Source of the DNA: Catajapyx aquilonaris | Lineage: Eukaryota | Reading direction: 5' to 3' | DNA length: 64,000 bases | Assembly: GCA_000934665.2 (NCBI GenBank) | Contig: JYFJ02000293.1 | Coordinates: 62,001 to 126,000, forward strand | Part shown: in pieces, positions 1 through 61,904 of the stretch | Layout of the letters: each line of letters opens with the position of its first letter | How positions within the stretch are numbered: the stretch's first letter is position 1 | The notes under the pieces: generated by a model | Told to the model about the DNA's origin: nothing | Database searches by the model: none | Seen by the model: only the letters and a program-made list of their open reading frames with translations | Program-made: the position numbers and the translations under genes

Positions 1-2013
1 GTGGAGCGGACGGCCTTGCGGCAGAACCTCAAGTTCGACTTCAGGTCGGCCTGTCGAGCGCTGGAGAACCAGCAGCGCGTTCACGAGCGGATGCAAGGCC
101 ACAAGAACACGGTGGACCTGAAGGTGTTCCAGGCCAGGAAGCGGGCCAAGAACGAGGACGACAAGGTCACCAAGATGTACGAGGAGTGGCTCCAGAAGCA
201 GCGGATCCTGGAGGAGGAAGAGCAGAAGCTCCAGACCGTCCTGCAGAAGCTCCGCGTCAAGGAGGCCCTCCGCGAGGAGTACCGCGAGCTCTTCAAGAAC
301 GCGTACCAGGAGCGGTACGAGCTGCGGATCCAGCTGATGCGCAACCTGGAGGACCACTCCTGCACCGGGAAGGGCACCACCAGCCTCCACCAGCGGCTGG
401 AGGCTCTCCAGAACCAGTCGGCCAACCTGAACCAGGAGCTGCATTTCGACAAGAACCGATTGGCAGGGCGGTACTTGGACCTGGAGGTTCAGGAGAACCG
501 GCTTGCGACCAAGCGGAAGGAGCTGCAGGTGCTGCATGACGGGTTCCAGCAGCAGTGCGGCACGCTGGATAAGGTCGAGGTGGAGCTGAGCAACGCGGTG
601 CTGGAGGAACGCCGCGGATTGGTGCAGCTGGACATTCTGACAGGTACGTACTGGCGGCCACTGTGGATTCCGCTCTAACGATGCGTCTCGTAGGCAAGCG
701 GCATGAAGCGGAGGCCTACTACAAATCGAAGCAGGCTCAAGCCGGCCCGTTGCAGCACAAGCTCCACCGTATGGAGGAAACGGCGTCCGTCCTGAAGCGA
801 TCCATTAAGGACATATTCGAGAGCTGGCGCGGAAAGCGGAATGGGCTTCTCCAGAAGACCCGGGCGCTTCACTCGCTGTCGACCACCCGGCACTACAGGC
901 TGCAGGAGTCGGCCGCGCTGAGGCGGTACGTCCAGAAGGAGGAGACGAGGATGGAGGACCTGGCGAAGGAGGTGAAGAAGGAGGAGGACATCATCATGCG
1001 GATGGGAGAGCAGGTGTCGAAGCTGCACAGCGAGAAGAAGCTGCAGGCTGGCGTTAAGGTGGCGGCGAAATGGGGGAACGTGATACTGCAGGACGAGCAG
1101 GCTCATAAGGTACGTCGTCGTCGCTTCATGTCACGCAGGTACTAATCGCGGTTGTTCAGATACGGGAGCTTGAGAGCGCGACGTTGCGACTGGCGAGCGA
1201 CATCGAGGGGAACAAGGCGGGGCAGCAGCGGTTGGCCCTAGCCCTTCTGGACCGCCGGGACGAGCGGCTTTTCTGGGAGAAGCGGCTCCAGACGGCGCAG
1301 GAGGCCCGAGAGACCATCAAGACGGCGGAGGAGCCGGAGATGCACCACATGAAGCAGCAGATCCACCACATGGAGGTGCGGCTGAGGGAGCTGCTGCGGG
1401 TGCAGGAGAAGGTGCTGCAGGACATGGAGAAGGGCGTGGGTCAAAGGGCGCACATGTACACGAAGGCCGAGTGCAGGCTGAGGCGGTCCGAGACGGTCGC
1501 CAAGAGCAAGGAGGCCAAGCAGGAGAGGGCCATCCAGCTGCTGCAGTTCAAAGTCGAGAAGGCCAAGAAGGTAAGGCTCGCTTAACGAGAAGCTGCGGCA
1601 ATGTGACTGAAAGCGCGACGTTGCAGGAGTCGGCGTATTGGGAGCAAGCCGTTGATTCGATGCGAGTCAAATCCGTTAACCTGAAGACCAAAGTGGAGCT
1701 GGAGCAAGAGGGCGCTTGTCGAATGCACCACAACTTGGAGCGCTTGAAGGCGGACGTGCAGCACGCTTGGGTGCAGAAGATGCGGGGAGTCGAATCCATC
1801 GTGGCCCAGCAGAACAGGGTGAAGACGTACGAGGACATCAAGAAGGGGAAGGTGAAGGTGCCGTTAAGCAGGGAGCCCCAGGAGCTGGAGGATCTGATCC
1901 AGGAGCAGATGCGGTGCAGGGAGGCCATCGTGGAGATGCTGGTGCAGTGCATGCAGGACTGCAGGCCGCAGGGGCTGCTGCTCAAGAAGGCGTTGCACAT
2001 TATCGAGAAGTAA
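1..2013 (+). CDS. CCDC40: Coiled-coil domain-containing protein 40 (axonemal ruler), 5'-partial; exons 1-643, 694-1109, 1160-1570, 1627-2013
   Basis: Three short GT-AG introns (50, 50, 56 nt) join the ORF-track fragments in frame. The product is coiled-coil throughout. The segment RLFWEKRLQTAQEARE...EMHHMKQQIHHMEVRLRELLRVQEKVLQDMEKGVGQR matches the CCDC40 C-terminal motif LWEKKIQLAKE...EIHRMKVRL.QLLKQQEKMIR.ME.AV.RR. Confidence 0.85.
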
Positions 2014-2080: not shown

Positions 2081-3471
2081 TTAGCAATAAACACGTTTGT
2101 CATAATACGGATAGGCTTTGAACTTTCCGACCTTCTTGTCATGCTTGTCGTAATTGAATTTAAAAAAGCACCACTCGCAATATAGGAACGGATCGCATGG
2201 GACTCGGTCATTTCCACGGGTGATCCACTTTGCGATGTACTTGCGGCAGAGCATGCATTTTTTGGCTCTTGCTCGTACGTTGCGGACAATCAGTGGGTAT
2301 GCTTCTTTAGGCGAAACGGGCCCGACGGTGGGGTTATGCAGCCAGGCGTCGGTGAATATCACTGCATGTTCGCAGGTCTTTTGATGTATGTACAAGTACG
2401 GTCGGCCCAGACGCAAGTTGAGGCTACGTAACGATGTGTCAACCATTGAAGATCGCTCGTATCGTTCTGAAGGATACGAAGTCCATTTGCTGTAACGAGC
2501 ACGTACATCCTGCAAGTCCATCTCTGCGCAACGGTCATCCATGTACAGCACATCCTCGATACATATGCATCCTGAGCTGTCCTTCTCCTTAGCCGTCTTT
2601 GGCTTCATGCCTTTTGGGTTTTCAGACACGTCGTCAGTCACACCTAGGTCAACCTGGCATTTAATCAAGTCTCGCACGGACCACAAGTTTTGGCTTCCTA
2701 GCACCTGCAGCTTCACGCTCAATTTCGGCTCGGTTTCATCCCGCTTCGGATGGTACACGCAGATGGCGAACACAACTTCGGAGGGATCCACCGCAGTCTG
2801 TTTGGTTCGTCCGGACGGCCAGGATTCCTCGCATCCGTCAGCAGTGTGCAGGTACAGGTGTCCGTAGTAACGCCGCAATGTGTCGTCTTCCTTCAAAAGG
2901 TCCGCTTTCCGCAGCTGCAACGTACGGAGGCCTATACCTTCCGGTATGGCCTGAATCCTTTCCAGAATATCAGGCAGCCGCTTAATCTCCTGTACGGTGT
3001 ATGACGCCACATGTTTTTCAGGATCCGGATTAAGTAAAGCCAGATCCATGGTGTCGACCAGCTCCTGCGTTCTTGCCGAAGTTAGTTCCAACGCCCGGCT
3101 CATCCACACGCTGAATCGCTGCCTCTTATGGTTTCCGGTCCCCTCCAGCCGTCCTCTAGCATTGTCGAATTCCTTGAAATATCTGTCGAATTCCAGCTTG
3201 GTTGACGACACAATTTCATTTGGATTCGACTGGTCTTCAGCCTAGAAAAAAAATTCAATAATAAATTAATTATTACAAAATTATGTCAGTGCGCAACATT
3301 CCGGGATATGTTTACCTTATGGATACCCGTCTCCTCCTGTTCAGTCCCTTGCATTGTTGCCTGTTGTGCATAGAACACTCCAGAAGGCTTTGTAGAACAC
3401 AATTGGAACAAGTTCCATACGTTCTCGATGGAAAAACCACAAAAACGTTTGATGTTCGAAACCGGGTGCAT
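2081..3471 (-). CDS. SNAPC3: snRNA-activating protein complex subunit 3 (SNAP50); exons 3471-3316 and 3241-2081, about 438 aa
   Basis: Contains VLGSQNLWSVRDLIKC, LNLRLGRPYLYIHQKTCEH and the C-terminal CMLC...CDPFLYCEWCFFKFNY zinc motifs typical of SNAP50. A phase-0 intron (AAG|gtaaac...ttctag|GCT) links the upstream ATG exon. Confidence 0.92.
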
Positions 3472-7645: not shown

Positions 7646-9708
7646 AAGTATTTTATTTTTATTTTTTTGTGGGGTACTGCTGATATTTGTCGGTCTCTCT
7701 TTTTACTTCGCAACTGTACTCCGGAAATAACCCTGGAAATTCAACAATTGCGTTTTAATTGGTGCATAGGTTAGACACAGGATATGACACTCCACATATG
7801 TTGTTTTAAAGAATGGAAAGTGTCCCACAGCAACAATTATGTTTAACCACAGACTGTTTATTCACCATAGTGACTACATAAGTCATTGTTTACGCAATTG
7901 ACAATGTTAACTCATTCCCTATTATGAGCTGAAATGCGCTACGATCAGCATCATATTTGAGTTGTAATTGCATTAGATATAGTTTTCCAATGACCGTCTA
8001 CACCTCTGACGGTCAATTTCAATTTACTATTAGTAAACTGACTTGACTTCATCATTATGAAATGCAATCTCCTGTAGAAAAATGTGTGAAGAAAAGGATC
8101 TCATAAGGGATAATTACAGTCTTCAAACCCACATGTCTGATCAGTCTGCAAATCGGGTCTTCACTTATTTTCATCTCTCATATGATCTTTTTTTTCCCCC
8201 AGCATTGAATCGAATTAAAAGCTAAAAATGCATAACAGCATCTACTCGGCATCTACCCTAATACGATACCTGGTGTAAAAGGTCGAGGATATAAAATCTT
8301 CGTCCGGTTGTACAGTAGAAATAGGACCGACTGATTATATGTACAGTGGTTTTATCAATCTAAATAGTAATGTTATGTATCTGAGCGACAGTTGACAACA
8401 AGCATTCAGTGTCGGCAACATATTCATTATCCCATCTCCTGCTATGGTTGCAGCAAAATGTTGAAGATTGTATGAAAGCACCTTGCCGACATGACTCTTG
8501 GTTTTCTGAAAGAACTCAACCTCCAACATAAAATCATCACGAAACATTTCCATGTAAAGTCGATGCAATTTCCATGCTTCGGCCAACCAGTTGTTTATTA
8601 AATAACTTGTAGTTTTGTTCCAGTTTTTCATTTGCTGATGATTCCTTTCCTGTATCACAGAAAATCATTACCGTTCCTTTCAATTGTTTAGCACTACCAG
8701 TTTTGCAAAAATAATTAAAAATGCAGTTTTTTTCCAGCAGAATGTGTAGTATTTATTATTCCATATTTAGATCCAACACTACATTCACATGTTATATGGA
8801 AGGGGGGAAAAAAACCTTTTAGGTCCCTTGGAGCCAGAAGTATATATATTATCATGTCTTACTTCGACATGCAATATCAGGAGCGACTCATAATTTTTTA
8901 AATAAGGTACATAGACAACTTTCTGATGCTCCTCCTGTATCGAGGGAATTCCCCCCTCCCAGTCAGGATGCTTGCTGTGTCATTGAAGGCCACTCCACTC
9001 ACAGCAGGAAAGGCATGTGCTGCTCATTCGCTGGGCAGCACTGCACACTTGCGGTTTAGACTGACAGCCAGGGTTTGCATTATTGAAATTATTTCACACG
9101 TAGGCAGCTGAACTTCCTGTAAGTACAACATACAATGTCTCTTTTGTACTGTACATGCCCAGATGTGTTGTATTTAATCAATTTTTTTTAAAAAAAACAA
9201 GGATTCCTTAGGAGGTGGGGAATATTAAATTGCACAGTAGCATTGGACCTTTTCATATTAAATCATAGAATATAATTAGGATGTAAGGCAATGAGTGAAT
9301 AAGCTGTACGTTGGAAATTTCCAAACACTGGCAGAGATTATTCCAGAAGAAACATGATCTGATCGAGAAACTTTTGCATCATGTGAATGGATTTTAAATT
9401 GTCTCCTGGTTAATGAATCATTCTTCACTTGTGACATGTTTCTTTCATCACATACCGACATGAGTATCACCTAGTTAACACAGGTTATCGGATGAGATAA
9501 TGATTACTCAAATCACTGAATAGACCAGTCCTAATCAGGATCAGATTAAAGGAGACCTTGAAAGCTTTCATTTTTCAGATGTAATTACAATTTTTGCTTT
9601 TATTTGATTAGGTGTGAGTATTCATTGTGATTTACTTACAGTGTGACTCATTTTAATGTTTCATTGCAGATTTGTTTTCTTTTTTTAAAATCTGTCTCGG
9701 CAGGAGCA

Positions 9709-12203
9709 ATGGAACAAGGAGGATGGAAAAAGTCATCGCTTCCTGTCACTTTACCTGTCCAGGATTCATCCGAAATGGATCCAAGTGTGCAGAGGTAACA
9801 CTGAGAAATTAGTACGAATTGTATTAAAATATTCATTAGTTGCTAAAAGCTCTCTATCACGCTGTTATGGTTAGACCTTAGAATTTGTTTCGGTGCTCAC
9901 CTCTGCGTAGAATGTATAATATGCTTATCTCGAAATAACATGGAAATGACTTGCAATTTCAGCACCAGGGAGGCCTTTTACGAATATTACCAACGTGACG
10001 TTCCTAGTCTGACAGTATCTGTGGATGGAAATGGCCATAAAACCAGGACAGTTGTCTTCAATGTGGTTGAAGCAGCTCAGGTGCTTGGGGTTCCACCCAC
10101 ATGTGAGTGATTCAGCGGAAACATCTAAGACACTTCACGTAATTTGCTGCCCCCTTTTTTTTTCACAGACTTGACTCAGTACATTGGAAGTGAGCTTGGA
10201 TGTCAGTCGCAGTTTGATTTTAAAAGCATGGAATTTGTATTGGGAGGGATCCATGATACGGGCCACTTGAATTATCTCCTTGATACATTCATCCGCAAGT
10301 TTGTGCTCTGTCCTGAGTGCAATAGACCTGAAACTGCGATTCAAGTGGTAGGTAGGAAGCATCGGGCAAAGGTTATTCTCATCTGCCGTCCATGTGGGAA
10401 GGAGCATCAGCTGCAGCACAACCACAAGTTCATCCAGTTTGTGGTTAGAAATCCGCCAGGTAAGCTAGCTCAATATTAATATCCGAAATATTTTGGGCTG
10501 GTATGGACGAATGAGCCGTACAATGTAGGATGAAGGAAAACTTTTATGACAATGCAGCTGTTTACTTTTTGCAGCAGCTCAGGATGGAGAACTGTCGGAT
10601 CAGGCTAGGAAGACGAGAAAATCAAGTAAAGGTAAAGAGTGTGCAATTGCATTTGGCTGCATGAGACACTTGGTGAAAAATATCAAGTGCTACTCAGAAA
10701 TGTCTGCTCTTTGTGTGCAGCTGGAGAGAAACCTCGGAGCACGGCAGGTTTCCATGAGGCAATCGTGAAAGGACTGAATGAAGTCGGAAGGGACCTGGAT
10801 TCATTGCAGACATTTCTGGTGTCAACCGAGTCTAAACTTAACTACCGGCACAATGGAGAGGTTCTTTTTGAAGTTCTGCTAACTGGAGGAGTACTATGTA
10901 TGTCTTTTTAATTTTTTAATTGTACAGTAATTCATTTCAATTTTATGATGGTAGCTTCTGGAGCCAAGATGGATGGTTACGTTGGCACAACTGATGTCTG
11001 TGCGACTTGTTTGCCCCTTGACGTTGGGATGCTGCATGCTTTTGCCGAGGCAAGGTTTCATTTATTAACAGGTGCTTACATATTAATAAGTTATTGTTCC
11101 TTAGGTGTTTGCAAGCCTCATTAGAAGTTACAGATATTTGAAAAAGTTTCTTGGACGAGCGTTGCAGAAGGTGTTTGGCTCCTTGACTCAGTTTGATAAG
11201 AATGAAAGGTCTAAGCTTGCCTACATAACAGGCTTCTGCTTTGCATATCGCCTGTGTAGACCGAATGTCCTGCGAACCCTAACAAATGTGAGTTGAAGCT
11301 TTCTTTCCGTTTGCGCTGTGGAGTACTGAAGTTGTGTTTTTCCTTAGGAAAAAATAGTCGAGGATAATGTGGCCATTTACTTCGTGATGGAGGCTCTGGG
11401 TGTCTGGAAGGAGGAAAGGGGAGTGACTGACGTTCTTCAATCACTTAGAAAAGCTGGGATAGCACCAAAGTAAGTTTTTTTTTTTTTAATCCAAGTACTT
11501 TTTCATGCTGCGTTAACTGGTTATGATGTCCAATCATTCCGTCGTAGCCTACTGGAATTTTTCCCACTGGATCAACGGTCTGATGATGTGACTTGTAAAG
11601 CAGTGCTTGAGGAGCATGGCCTCGGTGAAGTGGCCAACCATGTGAAGGAACAAGTTGATGTAGAGCAAAAGTTGGCGTCCCAGTTGAAAACTCAGATTCT
11701 GAGAGGACGACCTGTGAAAGACGCTGTGAAGGATGCCAAGAAGTCTGCATCAAGGAAACTTCCTGGCCATCAAGTTGACAATATAGTAAGTGCCATATTA
11801 ATCATTGAGACTGTTATTAATTATCTCCTGAATTTGAATTTACAATAATTAATATTAGATTGACTAGTAAATAACAGCAATCTGTAAGTCTGTTCTCAAT
11901 AACATTTCACAACAATGAAGTGGTATGCTGATGATAAATTACACGTTTCATTTAATCTTTTTATGACCATTTTAGATTTGGGACACGGTGACATCGTGCA
12001 TGGAACAGATTAGAAGTGACTCCCAGGGAAAATTCCCTGAGAGGTCAAGGTCGCAACAGGAGGAGCAATCGGGCCAAAGTCATGAACTAGTAACTGTGGA
12101 ACATTTTAATAAGAGCATGGCTGAGCTGAAGGAGCAAGTGTTTAGTCTGGTTGCTCCTCTTGGCAACAAGTTAGATGAGCTGCTGAATGTTAATCAAAAG
12201 TGA
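9709..12203 (+). CDS. Chimeric eIF5-NTD / 5MP(BZW)-like protein, copy A; exons 9709-9794, 9963-10102, 10169-10459, 10575-10631, 10721-10897, 10955-11049, 11105-11287, 11348-11469, 11548-11785, 11976-12203; about 538 aa
   Basis: The spliced frame is open. The N-part matches eIF5 (PPTYLTQYIGSELGCQSQFD...FIRKFVLCPECNRPET...CRPCG...HKFIQFVVRNPP). The remainder matches BZW/5MP (RKTRK, IVKGLNEVGRDL, KLNYRHNGEVLFEVLLTGGVL, VFASLIRSYRYLKK, SLRKAGI, LLEFFP, IWDTVTSCME). Confidence 0.88.
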
Positions 12204-13206
12204 AGTAAAGGCTGAATCAGAATAGAGCTTGAATTCCTAAGGTGGCAGTTTCGTAGTTTCCTTTTAAATTTACCTTGAAGTTTGGCATGGAACTATAGGC
12301 ATGCTATTGTAAAATCAATTTAATGAACTTTAAATGTTTCATGCAATTTACTGACACACTTTAATATGAGATTACAGAAGCATCTGCTAGGTTTTTAATG
12401 ATATGGATTAAAGCTCTCTTCTGTTACACACAATTTGACAACACTGTGCATATGGAGAATAAGATTGAAACTACAGCTACTTTTGGGGGCAAATTATAAG
12501 GTTAAAGTAAGAAATTGGCTGCGGTTGGTTGGTTGTCCAACAATTCGGTTTGAATTATTTGACCGGCAGTAATCATTACAATAAAATAGATGAGAAGGGT
12601 TACTAGTCCATTACTTTTTGTCTGGTTTATTACCGTTATTTTACTCGTTATATACACTTGCCTTAAAACTGACATTGCCTGTACCATGGAAATATTTGAA
12701 ATATATGCCTACTGTAGTATCTCATTAATATTTTTTTAAAATAAAATTATTTTTATCCCATTTGCAGCTTATAAATAATAAAAATCATTCACTGCCCATT
12801 TTGTAAACTGAGGCTCTGAAATGTACAGGCATGTTCTCAACTTTGGTCCCATTATTATGGTTAGCCTTGGTAAGCAAAATTCTTATCAGTGTTTGTCTCA
12901 TACTTGAGGCAAGCTGGACTGGGGAATTTCCCCCCTCACAAGCTTGCCCTCACGCCATTGGGTGAGTGGCCATTAGGATCATGTGTGTCCCAGCCAGGAA
13001 GTGTCTGCATCTCTTTTTCCCCCAAGCTCCAGTATTGTCTAGACTATAGTACCCCAGTTCATACCATTATCAAAATCCAAGAAGCCTGCTGCTTGGAGAG
13101 TACTAGTTAACCGTAGCTGCAAGTAAGTGTGTTATCCAATAAGTTGCTCATTATTTTGTTAACATTTTAGTGTTTGACGGTAATTGCTTTTTGTGTTTTT
13201 TTAAGA

Positions 13207-15499
13207 ATGAAAGTGCTTACCACTGATGTTAGGGATGCCTACTTCCAATATTCCAAGCGTGAAGTGCCCAACTTGAGGGCAAAGGTAGAAAAAAAGGGAA
13301 AGGAAACCCTTACGATCATTATCAACATGACTGAAGTAGCAGAGGTGCTTGGGATTTCACCGACACGTGAGATACTCAGACCGAAAGCTGTCAAATGTTG
13401 CAAACTGATCCGCCTTTTTTTTTCCGCAGATGTGACCAAGTACTTTGCAAGTGAACTTAAAACTAAGACTCGTAATGACTTCAAGAAGGATCACTTCGCA
13501 GTGACGTGTAGCTGCGATGAAGACTACCTGAACTACCTCCTGGACCATTTCATCTGGAATTATATGCTTTGCGCTCATTGTTACAAGTTTGATACTGAGC
13601 TTCAGGTGCTTTCGGATCAAAAGGTCACGCAGTTCTGCAAGCCTTGCGAGAAGCACTTTCTGCTGCGATTGCCCCGGGCATTCATCCGATATGTCGGCAA
13701 AAAGCCAGGTTAGTCATATTTTTCACTGTAGTAATTTTGTAATTAAAAAATTAGTTTCTTGGCTTCTAAAAGTGAGCGTTCCAGATGAATTCCTGTGGCC
13801 GTTACCGCATGAAACTAATACTAATCCATATTGCAGGTAAACTGATGCAGGAGCCTATGAAGATTGTAGTAATGCAGAAAGCGTCACCTGGTAAGGTACT
13901 TTTTAAATAATAGCAACTGCAACTGCGGCTGCTAACCAGCACATTGGTATTTGAAGTTTTACTTAAATTATACCATTATTTTCAGAAGTTCGTGCCACTA
14001 TGGAACGTGTGGACTACTGCGGACACATGTTGAAAGGACTTGGTCAGATCGGTACCACTGGGAATAAAGTGATTGCTATTCTCAAGTATATCGAGTCTTC
14101 CGGATCAGAAAATGATCATGGGCGTCACGGACGCCTGCTCTGGGACATTCTTCTGACTGGTTCTGTCCAAGGTTTGTGACAATGCACTTGGAATACTAAA
14201 TTAATGTTTTAAAATGCATAACTTGATGAAAGAATATTTTTAAAATCACTGAATTTGTCCAGTTTTATTGCATCACCTGGTCATTGTAAGTGACACTCAT
14301 TTCGCCTAAAACAGCAAATTTGATTACTGGCTCAGTAATTATTAGTGACGCAGCAGCATGATGAAAACAAGTGATTAACTTTTTTTTTTTAAATTATATT
14401 TTCCAGATGATGAGATAAAAGCAGAGTGTGGAGGAAGCACCGACTCGTGCCTTCTCCGTCTTCCGTATGACATGGCAAACATGACGGACTTTGTCGAGGT
14501 AAGATTGAATCTAGGGTTCTATTTGTTGGAGTCTGGCAAAAAGTCTGTTTGACGACAATCGATTTTTGATTGTCGTTGTTTTATTACGACTTTGTCCTGA
14601 GCATGACATCACACTGATTCTACATGTTATTTGCAGATGATTGGCACACTGACTGATCTGTACAAGATCCCAAAATGCTTGCTTGCCCTGAGTTTTGAGA
14701 AGATCTTGGGCAATCTGAAGGCATGCAATAAAGCTGATTGGCTGAAGCTGGCATGTGTACTTGCCCTTTTACTTGCATACGGCTACTGGGTACCATCTGA
14801 CGTGCAGGTAAGTGCGACATAACTTGTGACATTCACGTTTGAAAAGTGTGTTTAACACTCGATACCTTTTTCCGCAGAATTGGATTGCAGTAATTACATG
14901 GTGTACCCCGTTTGTCGTGCAAGTTTATCAAGTGCTGCGAAAAAAGGGTGGTATTACATCCATTTGGAGAACTATTTCACAGTAAGTTTCCGAGTTTGAT
15001 TCTTGGATTGCACCGAGAACTTTTTCGTGTGCCAAGTGACTATGTGAATGGCTGCTTAGCTTATTCGAGTTTTTCCCAACTTTAAGGCCAATGGGTCCAG
15101 TCTCAGAGGGATGCGGCTTGAAATCCAGTGGTGCTCTTTACAGTTCCAAGCAAGCTGCGTTTGGACAGAAGGCAAATGGTGATGGCAAAAACTTGCAGAG
15201 TGCAGCAGATAAGGCCAAGCAAGATTTACTGTTGCGACTGGATGATCAGATGACAAGGGATCGTCCTGTGGAAGATATTGTGACTGATGTGAAGCAATAT
15301 GCATCCCAAAACAACATGCATGATGAGGAAGTTACTGTCTTGGTGAGTGATAAATAAAGGGTGGCAGATTTTGTTCACGATGTCGTTTCTAACACTTGCT
15401 GTTTAAATTTAGATTTGGGAGACTATGATGAGTTGCATGGATAGCGTCAGGAAGAAGGGACCAAAGCGTATAACCAAATGGCACAAGGTTACTGTGTAA
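13207..15499 (+). CDS. Chimeric eIF5-NTD / 5MP(BZW)-like protein, copy B; exons 13207-13366, 13430-13708, 13837-13890, 13986-14171, 14407-14498, 14637-14807, 14878-14981, 15060-15342, 15413-15499; about 471 aa
   Basis: Open spliced frame with the same intron positions and phases as copy A. eIF5-like segments: VPNLRAKVEKKG...INMTEVAEVLGISPTHVTKYFASEL...LCAHC...CKPC. BZW-like segments: LLWDILLTGS, LKLACVLALLL, LFEFFP, RPVEDIVTDVKQY, IWETMMSCMD. Confidence 0.85.
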
Positions 15500-15603
15500 T
15501 CAAAAGTAAGTCATTGATCACTGCTTTACATGCTGTGTATGCTTGATGCATCACTCGCTGAGTGCAATCAGAGTAACAATTTGAATGGGTAAATACTCTA
15601 ATA

Positions 15604-15744
15604 CGGTAAAACCTCGATATATTGCTCTTCAAGGGGGCGCCAAAAAGTAGCGTTATATGCGGGGGAAATTTACCATATGGAAGTGATCACGGGACCGGGA
15701 ACTTAAAAGCGGGAAAGCGTTATATGCATATCGAGGTTTTACTG
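15604..15744. mobile_element. Tc1/mariner-superfamily (pogo/Tigger-like) MITE, 141 bp
   Basis: TIRs CGGTAAAACCTCGATAT / ATATCGAGGTTTTACTG flanked by TA on both sides. Confidence 0.85.
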
Positions 15745-16746
15745 TACTTCCTCTTTTTTTCTCCTGCAGAAAAGGTCAAGCCGACTGGCGACTCAGCGGC
15801 TGATATATTCAGAATGGAAACATGTCATTTGAGCTTTAGCCCTGTTGAGCACTGAGTTATGTTTTTTTTATTTTCAAAATTGAAGATTTCCTGTCGGTGT
15901 GATATTAGTGAATAATAATAAGCCCCAGAATTGATCGTTTTTAATATTTTAATATCCATGGTGGTCCTTTTAAATGTTAAATGCCACATGTAGGGAAAAT
16001 CCAATAAATCCATCTACAGGGTGTGCTGTAATTAGTGTGAATCCACTGAATCGTCTGATTTGCAAATTGTATGTATATTCAGCCACCTGTTGAATAAAAA
16101 GGTTGAAAAATTATTAAGGGTGGAAATTTCTTATTATTATTTTTTCGTAAGCAACGACTATTAGCAGTACTGATAATTAGCAGCTGCTAAAGCTTACTGC
16201 TAACATGGGATTTTAGTCGTACTGCTATTAACTTTTTTAATAAGAGCTGCTAAAGGTTGGACTGGAGGCGTGTCGGCGTCTGTGCATGTGTTCGGAAGAG
16301 ATTTGACAACCTCAGGATGTGTGAGGAACCAGGAAGATTTCATAGATTGTGAGTACGAATGGCATGCAAAATAATCTGCACCAGGATGATTATATGTATG
16401 GTGGTTTAGTACGTATGGTGTACCCGGAAGTGTGTACAAGTACCTTGGATGGAGCGCCAGGAGATGTACCCGGCATACTGTACATGGAATACATGACATG
16501 ATCGAAGCCCTCAACAGGTTAATAAAGCTAATAAGTAAATTAATTAAAATTGAGCACGCATTACCTCTTGCCATTATTTGTACGTTAATTATTTTCAAAT
16601 ATCGCGGTAAACTGACCCATGTGATTTAACAGTATATGGTACGAAGGTACTTAATAATAATTATGCTGCAATGTACATAAATGTAACTCTTCAAATTAAT
16701 TATAAAAATATGTTACCCTGGTTGGTAATTATTATTTTTGTGTGTC

Positions 16747-19700: not shown

Positions 19701-20359
19701 GCGTCTCATTACAATTTCGGCATGTTTCAAACCCTGCGAGAGAATCGGAGATGCTGCGCATACCAACATTTTGCCCTGAATACCTAAGTCATTGTTGACT
19801 ATAGAAAAAGTCACTTTTTGTCATTGTGACGTGCAGATTTGTTGTTTACTATGTGTGTGAATTCTCACTCTCCGCCCCGTAGGATGCCATTAGCCTGATT
19901 TACATGAAGGTCATGCACTCTACATGTGTAAGACCGGCAACTAAACAAAGGTGTTTACAAACTAAAAGAAGAGAATTAACACATTGACCTTGATTAATCA
20001 CCGGCTGATGTTGTGTACTTACCCAGGGAAGGGGAATTTTAAAATTCTCCGCTACTGTATGTACCGTACATGTCTGGTCACCAGACATACAGTGTTTTTT
20101 ATTAGCTTGTTACATCACTGTAATTGGAGTAATTTATGGGCAAAGGTGAAGGCTGTCCAAGTACTGAGCATTTGCGGATGTTTCAGTCCTGCTTTGCGAT
20201 TCTTGATGGTGAGTGTTGCCAGTTTTTCTCGTAGTGACATTTCACGATGTTGCTCCGATTGTTCATAGTTCGACTATTCGGGGTACGTTGTGCTGCTATT
20301 GTTTGACTTTTACGTGTCGTTCCTTCCAGTGAGTTGGAACGTGGTGTCTGGGAGCCACA

Positions 20360-34235: not shown

Positions 34236-34309
<74 letters not shown>

Positions 34310-55800: not shown

Positions 55801-58800
55801 CACGTAATGATGTGTTTAATAAACATTTCCTCAGTGAGGAAATTAATTTGTCGAATAGTGAATTACAAGTCAAGAAAGGTCTTGTTTGTTAGGCATTAAA
55901 ATACACAAGTTGTTGATTGAAACTTTTACTTAATTATGTTGCATGAATAGTGACATGACATCCACGTATTTGGTGTTAAAGTGATCGTGATGACTATTGA
56001 TGATGTGATTTTTGGACTCATGTGATTGATTGTTTTGAATGTCGTTTTTTTTGCTCTAAATAGCAACTCGCTGAATAAGGAAATTGCTGAATATCAGAAA
56101 ACAAGGTGTTCCCAAAATTGATGAGAGAAATCATATTCGTAAATTATGTTTTTTTATAGCATGAAGATGGATAACTACTATTACGTTTTTTTCCAGCTGG
56201 AGTAAAACGAGTAGAAAGGTGCCGTTTTTTGGGGGTGCTGAAAAAAAAGCCCTTATTATTTCCTAACTCGAAGTGAAACCTTCCCTTTTTATTGATGAGC
56301 AAACATAAAGCAAGAATCAATTATTGGTTGCCGAATAACTCTGCACTTTCTCCTCCATATTACTATTGAAGCTGGCCCCCATAAAAATTCCTATATGGCG
56401 ACCTTGCATTTTAACAATGTTTGCAAAATAGATCCACCATTATTTATTTTTTTACCTCAGATGTTGCGAAATCGATGAATGGCCGAGGAATTTTGGCTGT
56501 TCCCACCTTCACTGTGGGCGACCAATTGGAAAGCCCACCTCCGGGTGAGTCCTCCCCAAAATAATAATAAAAAAAAACCACCCTTGATGAGAAACAAGGG
56601 GTGTCTTCTTGAGCATCATCCTGTGGGTTTTCGTCTCTTCTATTTAGAGAAACCATCGTTTTATTCAGGGAGGATGACCCAACCGAGCCCTACCCACACT
56701 CACCGCAAGGTCGCAATCAAAAAAGGGCGAAATTTTGGTGTATTTTTGCACCATTGCACGTATTGTGCGATGAATAAAAATGCAAAGTGTTGAGTCAGTT
56801 GGCCTTGAGTGTTGGAAAGGTAAGGTTGGTTGCCTACGCGTTTAGGATATAGAAAAGTATGGTTTGCAAAGGGTGGAGCAAAGTGCTGCATGACTGATTA
56901 GTATGTTGCATGTGTTGGAGGAAAATGAACAATTACACTGCCCAAATTTAGCCGTACAGGGTGGTGTTACAGCAGACTTTTCATCTGGATTGTCGGCTAA
57001 ATTTTTTACAGCATTTTTTGGTGCAATATTCGGGTCTGATAATGATCCGCCTTGCATTTCCTATCCATACATTGTTTTCGAGCAGGCGAAAGCTCTCCTG
57101 GCCCGATAATACGAGAACAATGAGATCCACATTCAATACCATTTGCTTGCTGTTCGCATTCCATTGATGGCCATGATTTCAAAACACGCCGGAGGAGCTT
57201 TCACTGCTGACCTCGACAACTACTGTGACGACATATCGTGTACTGTGTTTTGCCTAATTGTTGGATTGTTGCAGCGTCATCCGAAGGAGAGACCAGACCT
57301 TCTCCGGTGTACATTGACCCCCTGGCGCCTAAAGAACCTCTGGCGGCGCCTGTACCCGATGCAGCAGCCTCGTTCCTCACCACCACCGTCTATGGGTTCC
57401 TGGACTTTGTCACCACTATTGGAAACACAGTCATGGTCTTCACGCCTCAGACCGCTCCTCCTTCAGGTTTGATAGTGTCTTAACTACCCCTTAAACCACC
57501 GTTAGATCTTACCGGTCCGTTAAATTGATGGAGAAACAGGCATTAAATCTATCGCGCCTCAGACTGCTCCTGCAAATTTGAATGTCTTAACTACCCCTTA
57601 AACCAGCACCGTTAGCTCTTAACGGTCCGTTAAATTGTTGGAGAAACAGGCATTAAATTCGTCACACCTCAGACAGCTCCTGCAGATTTTGAATGTCTTA
57701 ACTACCAGTTAAACCGCCGTTAGCTCTTAACGGTCCGTTAAATTGTTGGAGAAACAGGCATTAAATTCGTCACACCTCAGACTGCTCCTGCAGATGTGAG
57801 TGTCTTAACTACCCGTTAAACTATCGTTAGCTCTTAACGGTCCGTTAAATTGATGGAGAAACAGGCATTAAATCTATCACGCCTCAGACTGCTCCTGCAG
57901 AATTGAGTGTCTTAACTGCCCGTTAAACTATCGTTAGCTCTTAACGGTCCGTTAAATTGTTGGCGAAACAGGCATCAAATTCGTCACACCTCAGATTCCT
58001 CCTGCAGATTTAATAGTGTCTTAACTACCAGTTAAACTACCTTCTTAACGGTCCGTTAAATTGATGGAGCAACCGGGCATTAAAATCTTCGTTTATTCCG
58101 ACAGGTGAAAAAGTGAAGGTGTCGGTGGTAGGTGGACAGGAAGTCCTGACGGTGATATCGTCGTCTGCGGCGCCCAAGACGACGCTTGTGACGGCCAGCA
58201 AGAGCCAGCAGCTGTCGTCTAACATAAAGGCGTCGGCGTCTCCGTCGTCCAAAATCAACAAGGAGGACAACAAGGTGCTGCTGAAGAAGTCCGAGCCCAG
58301 AGTTGTGGTGTCCATACGGACTAGTAGTAGCTCCAGTGAGGAAGAGGACAAAGGTGGCGGTCATTCGTCGCCTAAACTAGAGGGCAGTGAGCCTTTGTTG
58401 GCCGCGGGGTCGTCGCCGTCGTCGGTCACAGTCTTGCCGTCAGTCGAGACGTCGTTTCTGATTGACGACGACGTCCAGACTTCAGTAGCGTCTGCGTCGC
58501 CCACACCTCCTCTCAACACACTTCAGTCGCAGGTACGCACACAGGTTCAAACCGCTGTTCGAGTAGCGTCGTCGGAGGCGTCGCCCACAGCAGCGCCCAA
58601 ACCCCAGCAGCAAAAGCTCCCAACTGGTTTGGTGACAACATTGGACGCAACCCTGGTCGCAGATGGCATCACTACTCTAATGAAAACGAGCGTCATTGGG
58701 ACATTCTTCGACGGAAAGTACGCTCAGATACTGCACAGCACTGCAGTCATACTCGGAGGGTAAGTACCAGTCATGTACAGGGCTATTCTGCCGTCAGATG

Positions 58801-61800
58801 TGAGAGGACCGTAACTCAATATCCACTTCCCTTTCGGCGAGAAAAGAAAGCAAGTGTTACCGAAAGCATCCAAGAGGTGGCGTTGGGGGAAGGGGGGAAA
58901 AGGAACGGCATCCCGACTCCATCTGTTGGGTGCTTTTGGTACCACTGCTTTTTTTTCCTCGCCGCCAGGGGATGTGGACATTGAGTTACGGTCTTCTCAT
59001 ATCTGACGGCAGTATTAATGGTGTACTAGTGGCGCCACAAGCTGTTGTCCGGAAAAGAGCGAATTCATCACTTTGATTCGCCCTTATCCCGACATCGGCT
59101 GGTGGCGCCACCAGCAAACTACAAAGAACGATCTGACGTCAGCCGTATTTTCTGAGCATGCGCAGTAGTATAGCGATTAATTGGAGGGAAGAGCCGGGTG
59201 GAGGCGGGGCTGAACATGACGTCAGATCATTCTTTGTACAGTTCGTGGACAATTTCTTCCGTGGAGTTCTTCACGATAATTGCGTGTATTTATAACTTAA
59301 TGGCCCGGTGCACAGAGGGTATCATTACGGTTCCTAACCACTGCACTCGCAATATACAGGGCGCAATTGTTAATATAGCCTTTCACCAGCCCGCACTGCC
59401 TGCTTTTCCTTTATTGCCAACTGTGGATGATACAACAGGATCATTACACCAATCAGCCTCACAACGACACCCGCAATAGTTGATGTAAAGTGCCAAAATA
59501 ACCCGTCATTTTACTCGCGGTTTGTGTGTTGGAAGTCACGGAATCGTCCGTTGTTATTACGGCAATTAGAGTGACGCAATCGACGCCTCTGTGCAATCAT
59601 TACTGTCCAAATAGCCGGGTAATAACGAAGCAATTGCCTTTTGTTTTTGATGCAACCTTTTCAGACTACTATCAGGGACAAAAAGTGTAGGGCACTACAA
59701 TGTTATTAAATTTGTTGTAGAGCGTCTCCGGTGCAGCCGACGCCTTTGCTGTCGGTGCTGGACAATTCCTTCGACGGCGAAGACGACAATGGATTCGACG
59801 ACGCCGAAGCCAGCGCGTCGGAAGAGCGTACATTGTACGTCCTACCTGAAGAAAGTGCGTCACCCACGGCCACAGTCACTAGACGCCATCTGAGTCCACC
59901 AGCGTCGCGACGCCCGTCGTCAGCATTCAGCCTCCGACGTGGCTCATCCCGTTCACCGCCGCCACCACCTCCGCCTCCGACGACGTCAAAGGCGCCACCA
60001 AAGTCCTACCAGAAGTCGTTCACTCCCAGGTCGTCGTTCAGGAACCGGTTCACCAACCCGACGCCCCCGACGCCTCCCCAACGCGTGAGCACCGTGTCAG
60101 TCTTTGCATCGCCGTCAGCCCCGTCACGACGCTCTTTCCAGCCATCAAGAACCAGGTCTTTCGCCCCATCACGACGTGGCTTTTCCCCAAAAGAAGCCAG
60201 ATCGCCGCCGACGACGACGCCTCAATCCTACCAGGACGTCCAACCGACGCCGGCGCTCAGGTTCAAGCCTCCTAGGAATTCAGGCAGATGGAGGTACGAA
60301 CCCTCGCCTAAACCCAGGGTGAACATACAGAAGACGGAGGGTACCAGTCCGCCTCAGCAACCGACGACGCCGACGTCCCCGACGCCTCTGACGCCCGCAC
60401 AGCAGCCACCGCCAGAAGTCCAGAAAGAAATTCCTCTTCAAGAAAGGTCTGTCCGCACACTTTCTTGTACAATATCGTATGTACTAATTCTATTTGTCAG
60501 TAGCAGTGTGAGTACGTCGGTGTCGACAGAGGACGAGGACGACCTTCAAGAGCTGATTGTTGGAGCTGAGGCTGAGACAATCCGAGTGACGACCACACGT
60601 GCGCCATTGCACGACGACGACGACGATGAGGTTCTGCTTCAGGTGGCAACCATCAAGTCTCCGTATGTGTTCCAAGCCGGAGCTGTCAAGAACACCAGGT
60701 TCATCACTCTGACCCACACGCAGTCTCTCCGTCTGCTCCAGACGGTTGACCCAAGTCTGACAGAAAACCTGCTGGCCACCACTCAACCTATAGAGAATAT
60801 TCTGCAAGGGTCGCACGACGTTGCAACTCTGCCGCCATTGACCCTCATCGACAATGGTGAGTGACAATGTCGTCGTTTTAGTACTGCTTGAGTGACAAAC
60901 TTGTCACCTTCCCAGGTGATGGCATCACGCAAGCGACTCCGGCCCTGGAGACGGTGACACAGACGCTGAGCACTGCTGAACTTCTCCTGAAGACAAGCGT
61001 CCTTCCAGTGGTGCGTCTGAAGACAGCTGGAGACGAATCTCCATCCACGTCATTCCTGACCCTGACCCAATCGTACTTTGTGACCCGGCTGGTCACCGCC
61101 ATGAAGACGCTCCCGGCGCTGGAGTACTACCAGTATGCGCCGGATCGCACCCTGACCGAGTTCAACACGTTGTTGCAGGAATCCGGATCAGAACACCGCG
61201 AGCATGTGACTGACGCTGATGACAACCCGCCGAACCTCAAGAAGGTCCTGCCTCCGCCTGACCTGGTGTCTGTCGGGTCGCCGTTTGACCCGTCGGCGAT
61301 GGACAACCTGCAGCATATCGGAAGCGTACCGAACCCGACGCCGACGTCGCCACCGACGCCTCCTCCGACACCACCGCCACCGCCACCACCGCCGGTACAC
61401 CCGTACTTCAACTACTTCAACCCGTTTGCTCCGTACATCAACCCGGTACCGCCTGTTCCGAGGCAAGAGCCTGTCGTTATGACCACATCCAGACCGGTCA
61501 TACGCACCAGTACGCTGTACGACACACATATCATTGCAATCACACCCCCGAGCGGCGGTGGTCCGACGTACTCGACCATCACGAGGCCGACAGGTACCAC
61601 GACCATCACGGACTACGTGCAGGACACCGTGACCCAGCTGGCCAACCCCGTGGCACCTGGGTACCAGCCGCAGTACACGCTGACCTCCAGCCCAGTGCTG
61701 ACCTCGGTCACTGTGACTGTGACCAACTCGAAGGTGCTGAAGCTCCAGTTCGGAGCACGTACCACTCTCACGACCATCTTTTCGACGTCGCTGGTGCCCA

Positions 61801-61904
61801 CTATGACCACCGTTTATGTCACGACCTCTGCGCCGGTACAGCCCACGGCGGGATACAATCCGTATTTCCCTGCACCACAGTTCCCTCTTCCGTTTCTGGG
61901 TTGA
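46862..61904 (+). CDS. Large secreted Ser/Thr/Pro-rich (mucin-like) DUF4758-type protein; exons 46862-46904, 57275-57466, 58105-58759, 59721-60446, 60501-60856, 60916-61904; about 986 aa
   Basis: A signal-peptide exon (MHLALLLALLALLP) splices in phase to the exon carrying TTTVYGFLDFVTTIGNTVMVFTP. The segment PTGLVTTLDATLVADGITTLMKTSVIGTFFDGKYAQIL resembles the arthropod DUF4758 domain. The C-terminus has SKVLKLQFGARTTLTTIFST. The first-exon assignment across a 10.4-kb intron is inferred. Confidence 0.8.
50007..50142. mobile_element. piggyBac-type MITE, 136 bp
   Basis: TTAA|CCTCCTGAAACCCCTGGTACAGTATACTGTAC...GTACAGTATACTGTACCGGGGGTCTCAGGAGG|ATAA, with one TSD mismatch. Confidence 0.8.
57441..58090 (+). 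repeat. Tandem array of six ~107-112 bp units spanning an exon/intron boundary
   Basis: Units start at 57441, 57553, 57663, 57771, 57878 and 57985 (CACRCCTCAGAC.GCTCCT...AACGGTCCGTTAAATTG.TGGAGAAACAGGCATTAAAT). Confidence 0.95.
58788..59012. mobile_element. Foldback MITE-like inverted repeat in an intron
   Basis: CTGCCGTCAGATGTGAGAGGACCGTAACTCAAT ... ATTGAGTTACGGTCTTCTCATATCTGACGGCAG; imperfect pairing extends inward. Confidence 0.8.

Follow-up and report, generated by a model that had tools for sequence, protein, structure and literature searches.

Two fused initiation-factor genes in tandem

We analysed a stretch of 64,000 nucleotides from the genome of Catajapyx aquilonaris (assembly GCA_000934665.2, contig JYFJ02000293.1, positions 62,001 to 126,000 of the forward strand; hereafter the window, with positions counted from its first letter). 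On its plus strand lie two neighbouring genes, A and B, each of which appears to join the N-terminal domain (NTD) of the translation initiation factor eIF5 to the HEAT domain of the eIF5-mimic protein 5MP (Table 1). The mimics 5MP1 and 5MP2 are also called BZW2 and BZW1; the Drosophila protein is Krasavietz, and the name eIF1S has been proposed. eIF5 and 5MP are regarded as rivals that compete by means of a common W2 domain. This is the very domain that we did not find in A and B: an eIF5 NTD followed by a 5MP HEAT domain but no W2 domain would be a domain combination for which our searches returned no description. The two genes represent what appears to be a new architecture made from two well-known families of initiation factors; its origin and the selection that has acted on it are well supported.

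An earlier note on this DNA had described two intact multi-exon open reading frames (ORFs) at this position. Splicing of A and B by coordinates gave an uninterrupted frame in both cases, at the lengths listed in Table 1, and the junctions named in that note (10459 to 10575 to 10721 in A, and 13708 to 13837 to 13986 in B) coincide with exact exon ends. The motifs that it quoted are likewise all present in the translations, namely the zinc-finger cysteines CPEC..CRPC and the string ELSDQARKTRK in A, the cysteines CAHC..CKPC in B, and the helix IWDTVTSCM in A or IWETMMSCM in B. In gene A an eIF5-type NTD comes first and is followed by a remnant of a 5MP-like N-terminal tail, the complete HEAT domain of 5MP, the beginning of the C-terminal domain (CTD), and a unique tail of 60 residues. 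Gene B, a diverged paralogue, ends 19 residues beyond the IWETMMSCM helix.

The eIF5-type N-terminal domain

The Pfam family eIF-5_eIF-2B (PF01873) was found in exon 3 of A (E = 9.6e-17) and in the ORF of B at 13171-13710 (E = 6.9e-14). The structure of the human eIF5 NTD (2E9H, chain 2e9h_A) matched the same exon of A with E = 1.6e-22 and B with E = 3.2e-15, and a second structure of this domain, 2G2K, matched as well (about 1e-22 for A and about 1e-15 for B). All four cysteines that bind zinc have been retained in A and B, where they align with those of 17 eIF5s. The N-terminal 145 residues or so of A and B are of the eIF5 type of the eIF-5_eIF-2B fold, with an intact C4 zinc finger in both. 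For a broader comparison we ran an exhaustive phmmer search with A exon 3 as the query against a library of 1.84 billion proteins, which returned 1368 hits, and examined the best 150. Among these 150, the closest relatives are animal eIF5s, with up to 53% identity over A exon 3, and the nearest named proteins are eIF5s of an insect (Chilo suppressalis) and of salmonids.

PF01873 and the zinc ribbon are also common to eIF2-beta and its archaeal counterpart aIF2-beta. Descent of the N-terminal domain from eIF2-beta was considered and rejected, because archaeal aIF2-beta matched A far more weakly (E = 1.2e-5 and 3.7e-4) than human eIF5 did. The N-terminal lysine boxes by which eIF2-beta differs were not seen in the translations of A or B.

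The earlier note had called the first part of both proteins a GTPase-activating protein (GAP) domain. This name says too much: the fold and the zinc finger are present, but the catalytic residue is not conserved. According to the structural account of the eIF5 NTD, GAP activity requires Arg15, which sits in a flexible N-terminal tail (PMC6298780). The corresponding motif, YRY, is present in 17 of the 17 eIF5s in our MAFFT alignment; A reads YQR and B reads FQY in those columns. The motif was also counted in the 80 database hits that have 12 or more residues before their hairpin motif. Seventy-five of them carry YRY, two of the five exceptions keep the arginine (FRY and RRY), and the remaining three look like wrong or mis-modelled N-termini. 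HMMER aligns B one residue differently, with a lysine in the Arg15 column followed by an arginine. Judged by these alignments, the GAP arginine of eIF5 is not conserved in place in either A or B.

The same account describes how the glycines of hairpin 1 of eIF5, together with Asn30, pack on the anticodon stem and the codon (PMC6298780). In the MAFFT alignment, the G-N-G-x-K-T pattern of this hairpin is present in A, displaced by two columns out of register, and the glycine/asparagine motif is lost in B. A and B also differ from eIF5 in what follows the NTD: they have neither the eIF5 linker nor its W2-type CTD, and the NTD leads into 5MP sequence instead.

The 5MP-like half and the missing W2 domain

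The profile of the 5MP HEAT domain, HEAT_5MP1_2 (PF25504), matched exons 5, 7, 8, and 9 of A with E = 4.9e-13, 1.3e-12, 7.8e-5, and 0.025. These matches are colinear and correspond to profile positions 14-65, 99-159, 160-197, and 201-238 of 241. Since ordered matches run from position 14 to position 238, the whole HEAT domain is present in A. As in 5MP1 and 5MP2, a basic tail (here a remnant) stands before it and the beginning of the CTD after it. The C-terminal half of B is homologous to that of A, with 26% identity over 331 residues (E = 1.4e-24). The succession of an eIF5 NTD and a 5MP HEAT domain, which had been proposed for both genes, was recovered through PF01873 in both, through colinear PF25504 in A, and through homology to A in B.

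The differences from 5MP lie at the two ends of this half. In the structural account of 5MP1, an N-terminal tail bearing an Arg-Lys-Arg motif occupies the entry tunnel of the mRNA and pairs with uS3 through its terminal residues; activity is abolished when the tail is deleted or mutated (PMC13693657). In 5MP1 this tail is a free N-terminus, whereas in A and B it would be internal, behind a domain of 150-170 residues. We compared A with the canonical string VLTGQRFKTRK, which was taken from the earlier note and not from a database 5MP. At the tail motif A reads ..TRKS.., so that R-K-S stands in place of RKR, and the aligned stretch of B lacks any basic motif. The claim of a 5MP-like tail holds for A as a degenerate remnant and fails for B.

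At the other end, no W2 domain (PF02020) was detected in the terminal exons of A or B, which have no Pfam match at E ≤ 1. Nor did W2, PF01873, or PF25504 appear at E ≤ 0.1 in 111 flanking plus-strand ORFs of at least 30 residues (5.6-9.9, 12.4-13.1, and 15.4-20.6 kb). The CTD of human 5MP1 comprises residues 248-407 (PMC13693657). Compared with these 160 residues, only about 115 follow the HEAT domain in A and about 86 in B, too few for a complete W2 domain. Both lines of evidence agree with the earlier expectation that a complete W2 domain would be lacking.

Gene models

Exons were joined by coordinates in scripts, and Pfam was run exon by exon on contiguous translations. In both genes the exons are richer in G+C (46-47%) than the introns (34-35%). 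The introns measure 55-235 bp, have pyrimidine-rich acceptors, and are flanked by usable splice sites in all 17 cases; eight of the introns of A are of the GT-AG type and one is GC-AG (donor at 11050), and those of B are all GT-AG. Retention would bring an in-frame stop in 14 of the 17, the other three being introns 4 and 6 of A and intron 1 of B. The least certain exon of A is exon 1, and the start at 9709 is not secure. An alternative start, an ATG at 9940, is in frame and contiguous with exon 2, and would make the N-terminus of A as long as those of B and of canonical eIF5. Possible untranslated-region (UTR) features of both genes are listed in Table 1.

A different reading of each locus is that it encodes two products, an eIF5-like protein consisting of the NTD only and an N-terminally truncated 5MP-like protein, so that the joint ORF is an artefact. 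The junction of the two halves is deduced from genomic sequence alone, and it is also true that retention of intron 3 would end the frame of A within seven codons, and retention of intron 2 that of B within one codon, either of which would leave an NTD-only product. However, the gaps between the eIF5-like and the 5MP-like exons are merely 115 bp in A and 128 bp in B, with good donor and acceptor sites. In A, the frame contains no ATG between the stop at 10547-10549 and the start of exon 6, so that a separate 5MP-like product would lose the tail and the first HEAT helices. Exon 3 of B does contain in-frame methionine codons, which favours separate products there, and the argument from missing start codons fails for this gene. 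In both paralogues the junction joins phase 1 to phase 1, and this has been kept despite a protein divergence of about 70%. We consider it highly improbable that each locus makes two separate proteins, and the structure of the junctions strongly suggests that A and B are real fused genes.

Kinship, fusion history, and selection

A and B are colinear over their full length. BLASTP finds 141 of 477 positions identical (30%, E = 1e-59) and MAFFT 142 of 450 (about 31%); the N-terminal halves share 38% identity (E = 1.3e-37), and each half is significant separately. All eight introns of B occur at the place (within four alignment columns) and in the phase of introns 2-9 of A. A quick maximum-likelihood tree of the NTD was computed from A, B, and 68 database eIF5s; from the 150 examined hits we took those that have the YRY motif and a domain end of NPP type, and excluded the remaining 82 as incomplete. 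In this tree A and B are sisters with an SH-aLRT support of 99, on a stem of 0.88 that joins near the animal eIF5s. Their end branches, 0.86 and 1.56 long compared with a median of 0.3, are 3-5 times longer than those of canonical eIF5s, and with branches of this length the exact attachment of the pair is unsure. The earlier note had placed the fusion before the duplication. Colinear homology, matching introns, and the sister position support the same order: a single fusion came first, and an already fused, intron-bearing gene was then duplicated in tandem. The duplication took place long ago, and both copies, B especially, have evolved fast. A tblastn search of the 64-kb window found neither a further copy nor a canonical gene for eIF5 or 5MP.

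We then asked how far the two frames have been under selection. Codon positions 1, 2, and 3 differ between A and B at frequencies of 0.48, 0.42, and 0.59. The NG86 method gave a dN of 0.66 and a dS of 1.86, hence a dN/dS of about 0.36, a rough value since dS is saturated. In neutral simulations, which placed as many random substitutions as observed, or half as many, in the coding sequence of A, the frame stayed open in 0 of 5000 cases and acquired a mean of 22 or 14 stops. By this result, selection has kept the real frames intact through most of their past; function may still have been lost in recent times.

These data also bear on the idea that A and B are decaying duplicates, unitary or processed-like pseudogenes without function whose open frames are a leftover. 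The very long branches would fit such a history, as would the loss of hallmark residues of both parent families and the failure to find a close homologue in the protein libraries. Against it stand the two frames themselves, open across 1.4-1.6 kb and never matched in the simulations, the usable splice sites of every intron, the lower divergence at codon positions 1 and 2 than at position 3, and the complete set of zinc-ligand cysteines in both copies. Decay without function is very improbable as an account of A and B, which we continue to treat as genes.

Searches for the architecture elsewhere

The earlier note knew of no described fusion between an eIF5 NTD and 5MP, and our searches agree with it, as limited tests that included neither a search across eukaryote genomes nor a query of InterPro architectures. 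Full-text literature searches (for eIF5/5MP/BZW fusions, for the Pfam names, and for an eIF5-mimic architecture, at the level of listings and abstracts) returned only papers on canonical 5MP or nothing relevant. In a 2014 survey of 97 homologues of 5MP, neither "fusion" nor "fused" appears in the main text (PMC4176352). None of the best 150 of the 1368 eIF5-like proteins contains a 5MP-like part, and no high-scoring segment starts beyond query residue 160; this covers the best-scoring hits, and more diverged orthologues of the fusion could rank lower.

Other libraries gave a similar picture. No cluster of the ESM Atlas joins the two families in a search limited to clusters with at least 50 members, W2 clusters left out; 30 of 30 hits of the eIF5-like exon carry PF01873 alone, and the HEAT exon gave only leads below 0.9 (MA3, 5MP HEAT). 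Sequence searches of the PDB with exons 5, 7, and 9 of A returned no 5MP chain, and a metagenome scan with exon 3 of A produced 124 pattern matches, none of which was confirmed. Word-index protein searches with exons 3 and 7 of A found nothing, which is very weak evidence, as the same search also misses a clear SNAPC3 ORF of the window. One library protein, P0097, has an unusual eIF5-NTD architecture of its own: it is 612 residues long and has two tandem eIF5-NTD-like domains and no obvious W2 domain.

Other features of the window

Besides A and B, the window contains several further genes or gene-like segments, which are listed with the coordinates of the two genes in Table 1.

Table 1. Coordinates of genes A and B, their parts, and other features of the 64,000-nt window
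Feature	Position	Strand	Description
Gene A	9709..12203	+	10 coding exons, 1617 nt, 538 aa; spliced by coordinates to an uninterrupted ORF
Exons of gene A	9709-9794, 9963-10102, 10169-10459, 10575-10631, 10721-10897, 10955-11049, 11105-11287, 11348-11469, 11548-11785, 11976-12203	+	
A exon 1	9709..9794	+	28 codons + 2 nt; N-terminal extension without counterpart in B or canonical eIF5
A exons 2-3	9963..10459 (9963-10102, 10169-10459)	+	eIF5-type NTD with C4 zinc finger CPEC..CRPC; from PF01873, 2e9h_A match, and alignment
A exon 4	10575..10631	+	Junction exon with 5MP-like N-tail remnant (..KTRKSSK)
A exons 5-9	10721..11785 (10721-10897, 10955-11049, 11105-11287, 11348-11469, 11548-11785)	+	5MP1/2 HEAT domain, then start of CTD; from PF25504
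A exon 10	11976..12203	+	IWDTVTSCM helix, then unique tail and stop; 0 Pfam families at E ≤ 1
Possible 5'-UTR arrangement of A	~9611-9670		Upstream of A; similar to that upstream of B
Gene B	13207..15499	+	9 coding exons, 1416 nt, 471 aa; uninterrupted spliced ORF; diverged paralogue, architecture as in A
Exons of gene B	13207-13366, 13430-13708, 13837-13890, 13986-14171, 14407-14498, 14637-14807, 14878-14981, 15060-15342, 15413-15499	+	
B exons 1-2	13207..13708 (13207-13366, 13430-13708)	+	eIF5-type NTD with C4 zinc finger CAHC..CKPC; from PF01873, 2e9h_A, and alignment
B exons 3-9	13837..15499	+	Strongly diverged 5MP-like half; from homology to the C-terminal half of A
Possible 5'-UTR exon of B	13095-13206		Upstream of the ATG; GTAAGT at ~13123, acceptor at 13205
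Possible 3'-UTR intron of B	15497-15770		Stop codon 7 nt before GTAAGT; good acceptor at ~15768
Coiled-coil-like gene	573-2013	+	G+C-rich; both strands carry long ORFs in several frames; only weak Cut12/DUF4618 matches
SNAPC3 ORF	2084-3241	-	Single uninterrupted ORF of 386 aa; complete PF12251, E = 2.5e-48; no relative by word-index search
Membrane transporter-like gene	20269-22206	+	Adjoining ORFs; weak MFS_1 match, 0.0012
tRNA-Gly (TCC)	23668-23739	-	Only Rfam/ARAGORN hit in the window
Run of 7 N	24178-24184		
Trinucleotide microsatellite	34236-34307		(TGA)n/(ATG)n, ~24 units; poly-Met or poly-Ile in ORF lists
Pro/Thr/Ser-rich ORFs	58068-61901	+	Long ORFs; the first matches DUF4758 "putative sperm flagellar membrane protein" (PF15950, 3.4e-14)

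Possible function on the initiation complex

Our best overall explanation, to which we would assign a probability of roughly 0.45, is that A and B are real protein-coding genes, duplicated in tandem in an animal genome, and that their products bind translation initiation complexes. The parent factors offer a structural frame for this proposal. Recent structures place the eIF5 NTD at the location of eIF1, on the platform of the P site (PMC6298780), and the NTD of 5MP next to eIF1A in the A site (PMC13693657). The contact of 5MP with eIF1A involves Arg120 and Arg121. The action of 5MP1 further needs the RKR motif of its tail and the contacts of its W2 domain, which binds eIF2-beta and the initiator tRNA (PMC13693657).

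Seen against this background, A and B would lack, through loss or from the outset, the finger for GAP activity, the tether to eIF2-beta and eIF3c that W2 provides, and the free tail of 5MP; B would also lack the tRNA-contacting hairpin. Their products would then be unable to act as a GAP for eIF2, would not be tethered to eIF2-beta or eIF3c through W2, and, unlike 5MP, could not insert a free N-terminal tail into the mRNA channel. They would have retained two folded modules that contact the decoding centre of the 40S subunit in the parent factors. We surmise that the proteins may bind 40S or 48S complexes without eIF2 and, being GAP-dead, compete there with eIF1, eIF5, or 5MP, and that such competition could modulate or block commitment to a start codon, A being the more canonical copy and B the diverged one. 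We put this specific mode of action forward tentatively, with odds that we would place below even. The interpretation given in the earlier note is, as a whole, partly supported; the role in start-codon selection is a part that we can only infer.

Several observations weigh against binding to initiation complexes, or against the genes as we describe them. A and B are known here solely as genomic sequence. No orthologue from another species was found, so conservation rests on one pair of paralogues, for which dS is saturated. By itself the C-terminal half of B is barely seen by Pfam (best E = 0.059 for PF25504, in exon 4). An arginine follows the Arg15 column after one residue in A and after four in B, within a tail that is flexible in eIF5, and GAP activity is for this reason not strictly excluded. 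Finally, the eIF5 NTD was observed exclusively on closed complexes (PMC6298780) and 5MP1 exclusively on open complexes (PMC13693657), which makes simultaneous docking of both modules speculative.

In a more elaborate version of the proposal, each protein would act as a single-chain clamp of the decoding centre. The eIF5-like domain would fill the eIF1/P-site pocket and the 5MP-like HEAT domain the A site, connected by a linker of about 30 residues. With W2 gone, such a protein would dock without eIF2 or eIF3. Under stress or in one type of cell, it could shut down 40S subunits or re-programme them, as a lineage-specific repressor or a factor of start-codon stringency, with one copy of the pair staying more canonical and the other becoming specialised. 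We hold this version to be unlikely.

Alternatively, A and B may be real and expressed and yet have departed from translation initiation, the zinc ribbon and the HEAT domain being re-used as a scaffold for binding other RNAs or proteins. Such a role might be germline-specific or driven by conflict, as with other fast-evolving duplicated factors. In A and B the motifs that serve catalysis or contact in the two parents have decayed (Arg15, the RKR tail, W2, and, in B, hairpin 1), the two copies have evolved rapidly and asymmetrically, and A has gained a unique C-terminal tail without a family match, all of which would suit a change of function. On the other hand, A still has the G-N-G-x-K-T pattern of the hairpin and some of the basic motif of the tail, its HEAT domain is full-length and scores 48-50 bits per exon, and nothing points to any specific alternative partner. 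A departure from initiation is in our view doubtful, though it has to be taken seriously, and binding to initiation complexes is still the explanation that we prefer.

If this explanation is true, the two genes would provide a natural fusion of two ribosome-contacting modules from which the W2 domain has been removed. This would be a ready-made experiment on what the modules do when they are untethered and on whether the P-site platform and the A site can be occupied together. Should the genes prove silent, A and B would be a curiosity of gene birth and decay. If they are expressed, they would constitute a new class of initiation regulator, and would show that core initiation factors can be remodelled by fusion at the level of exons.

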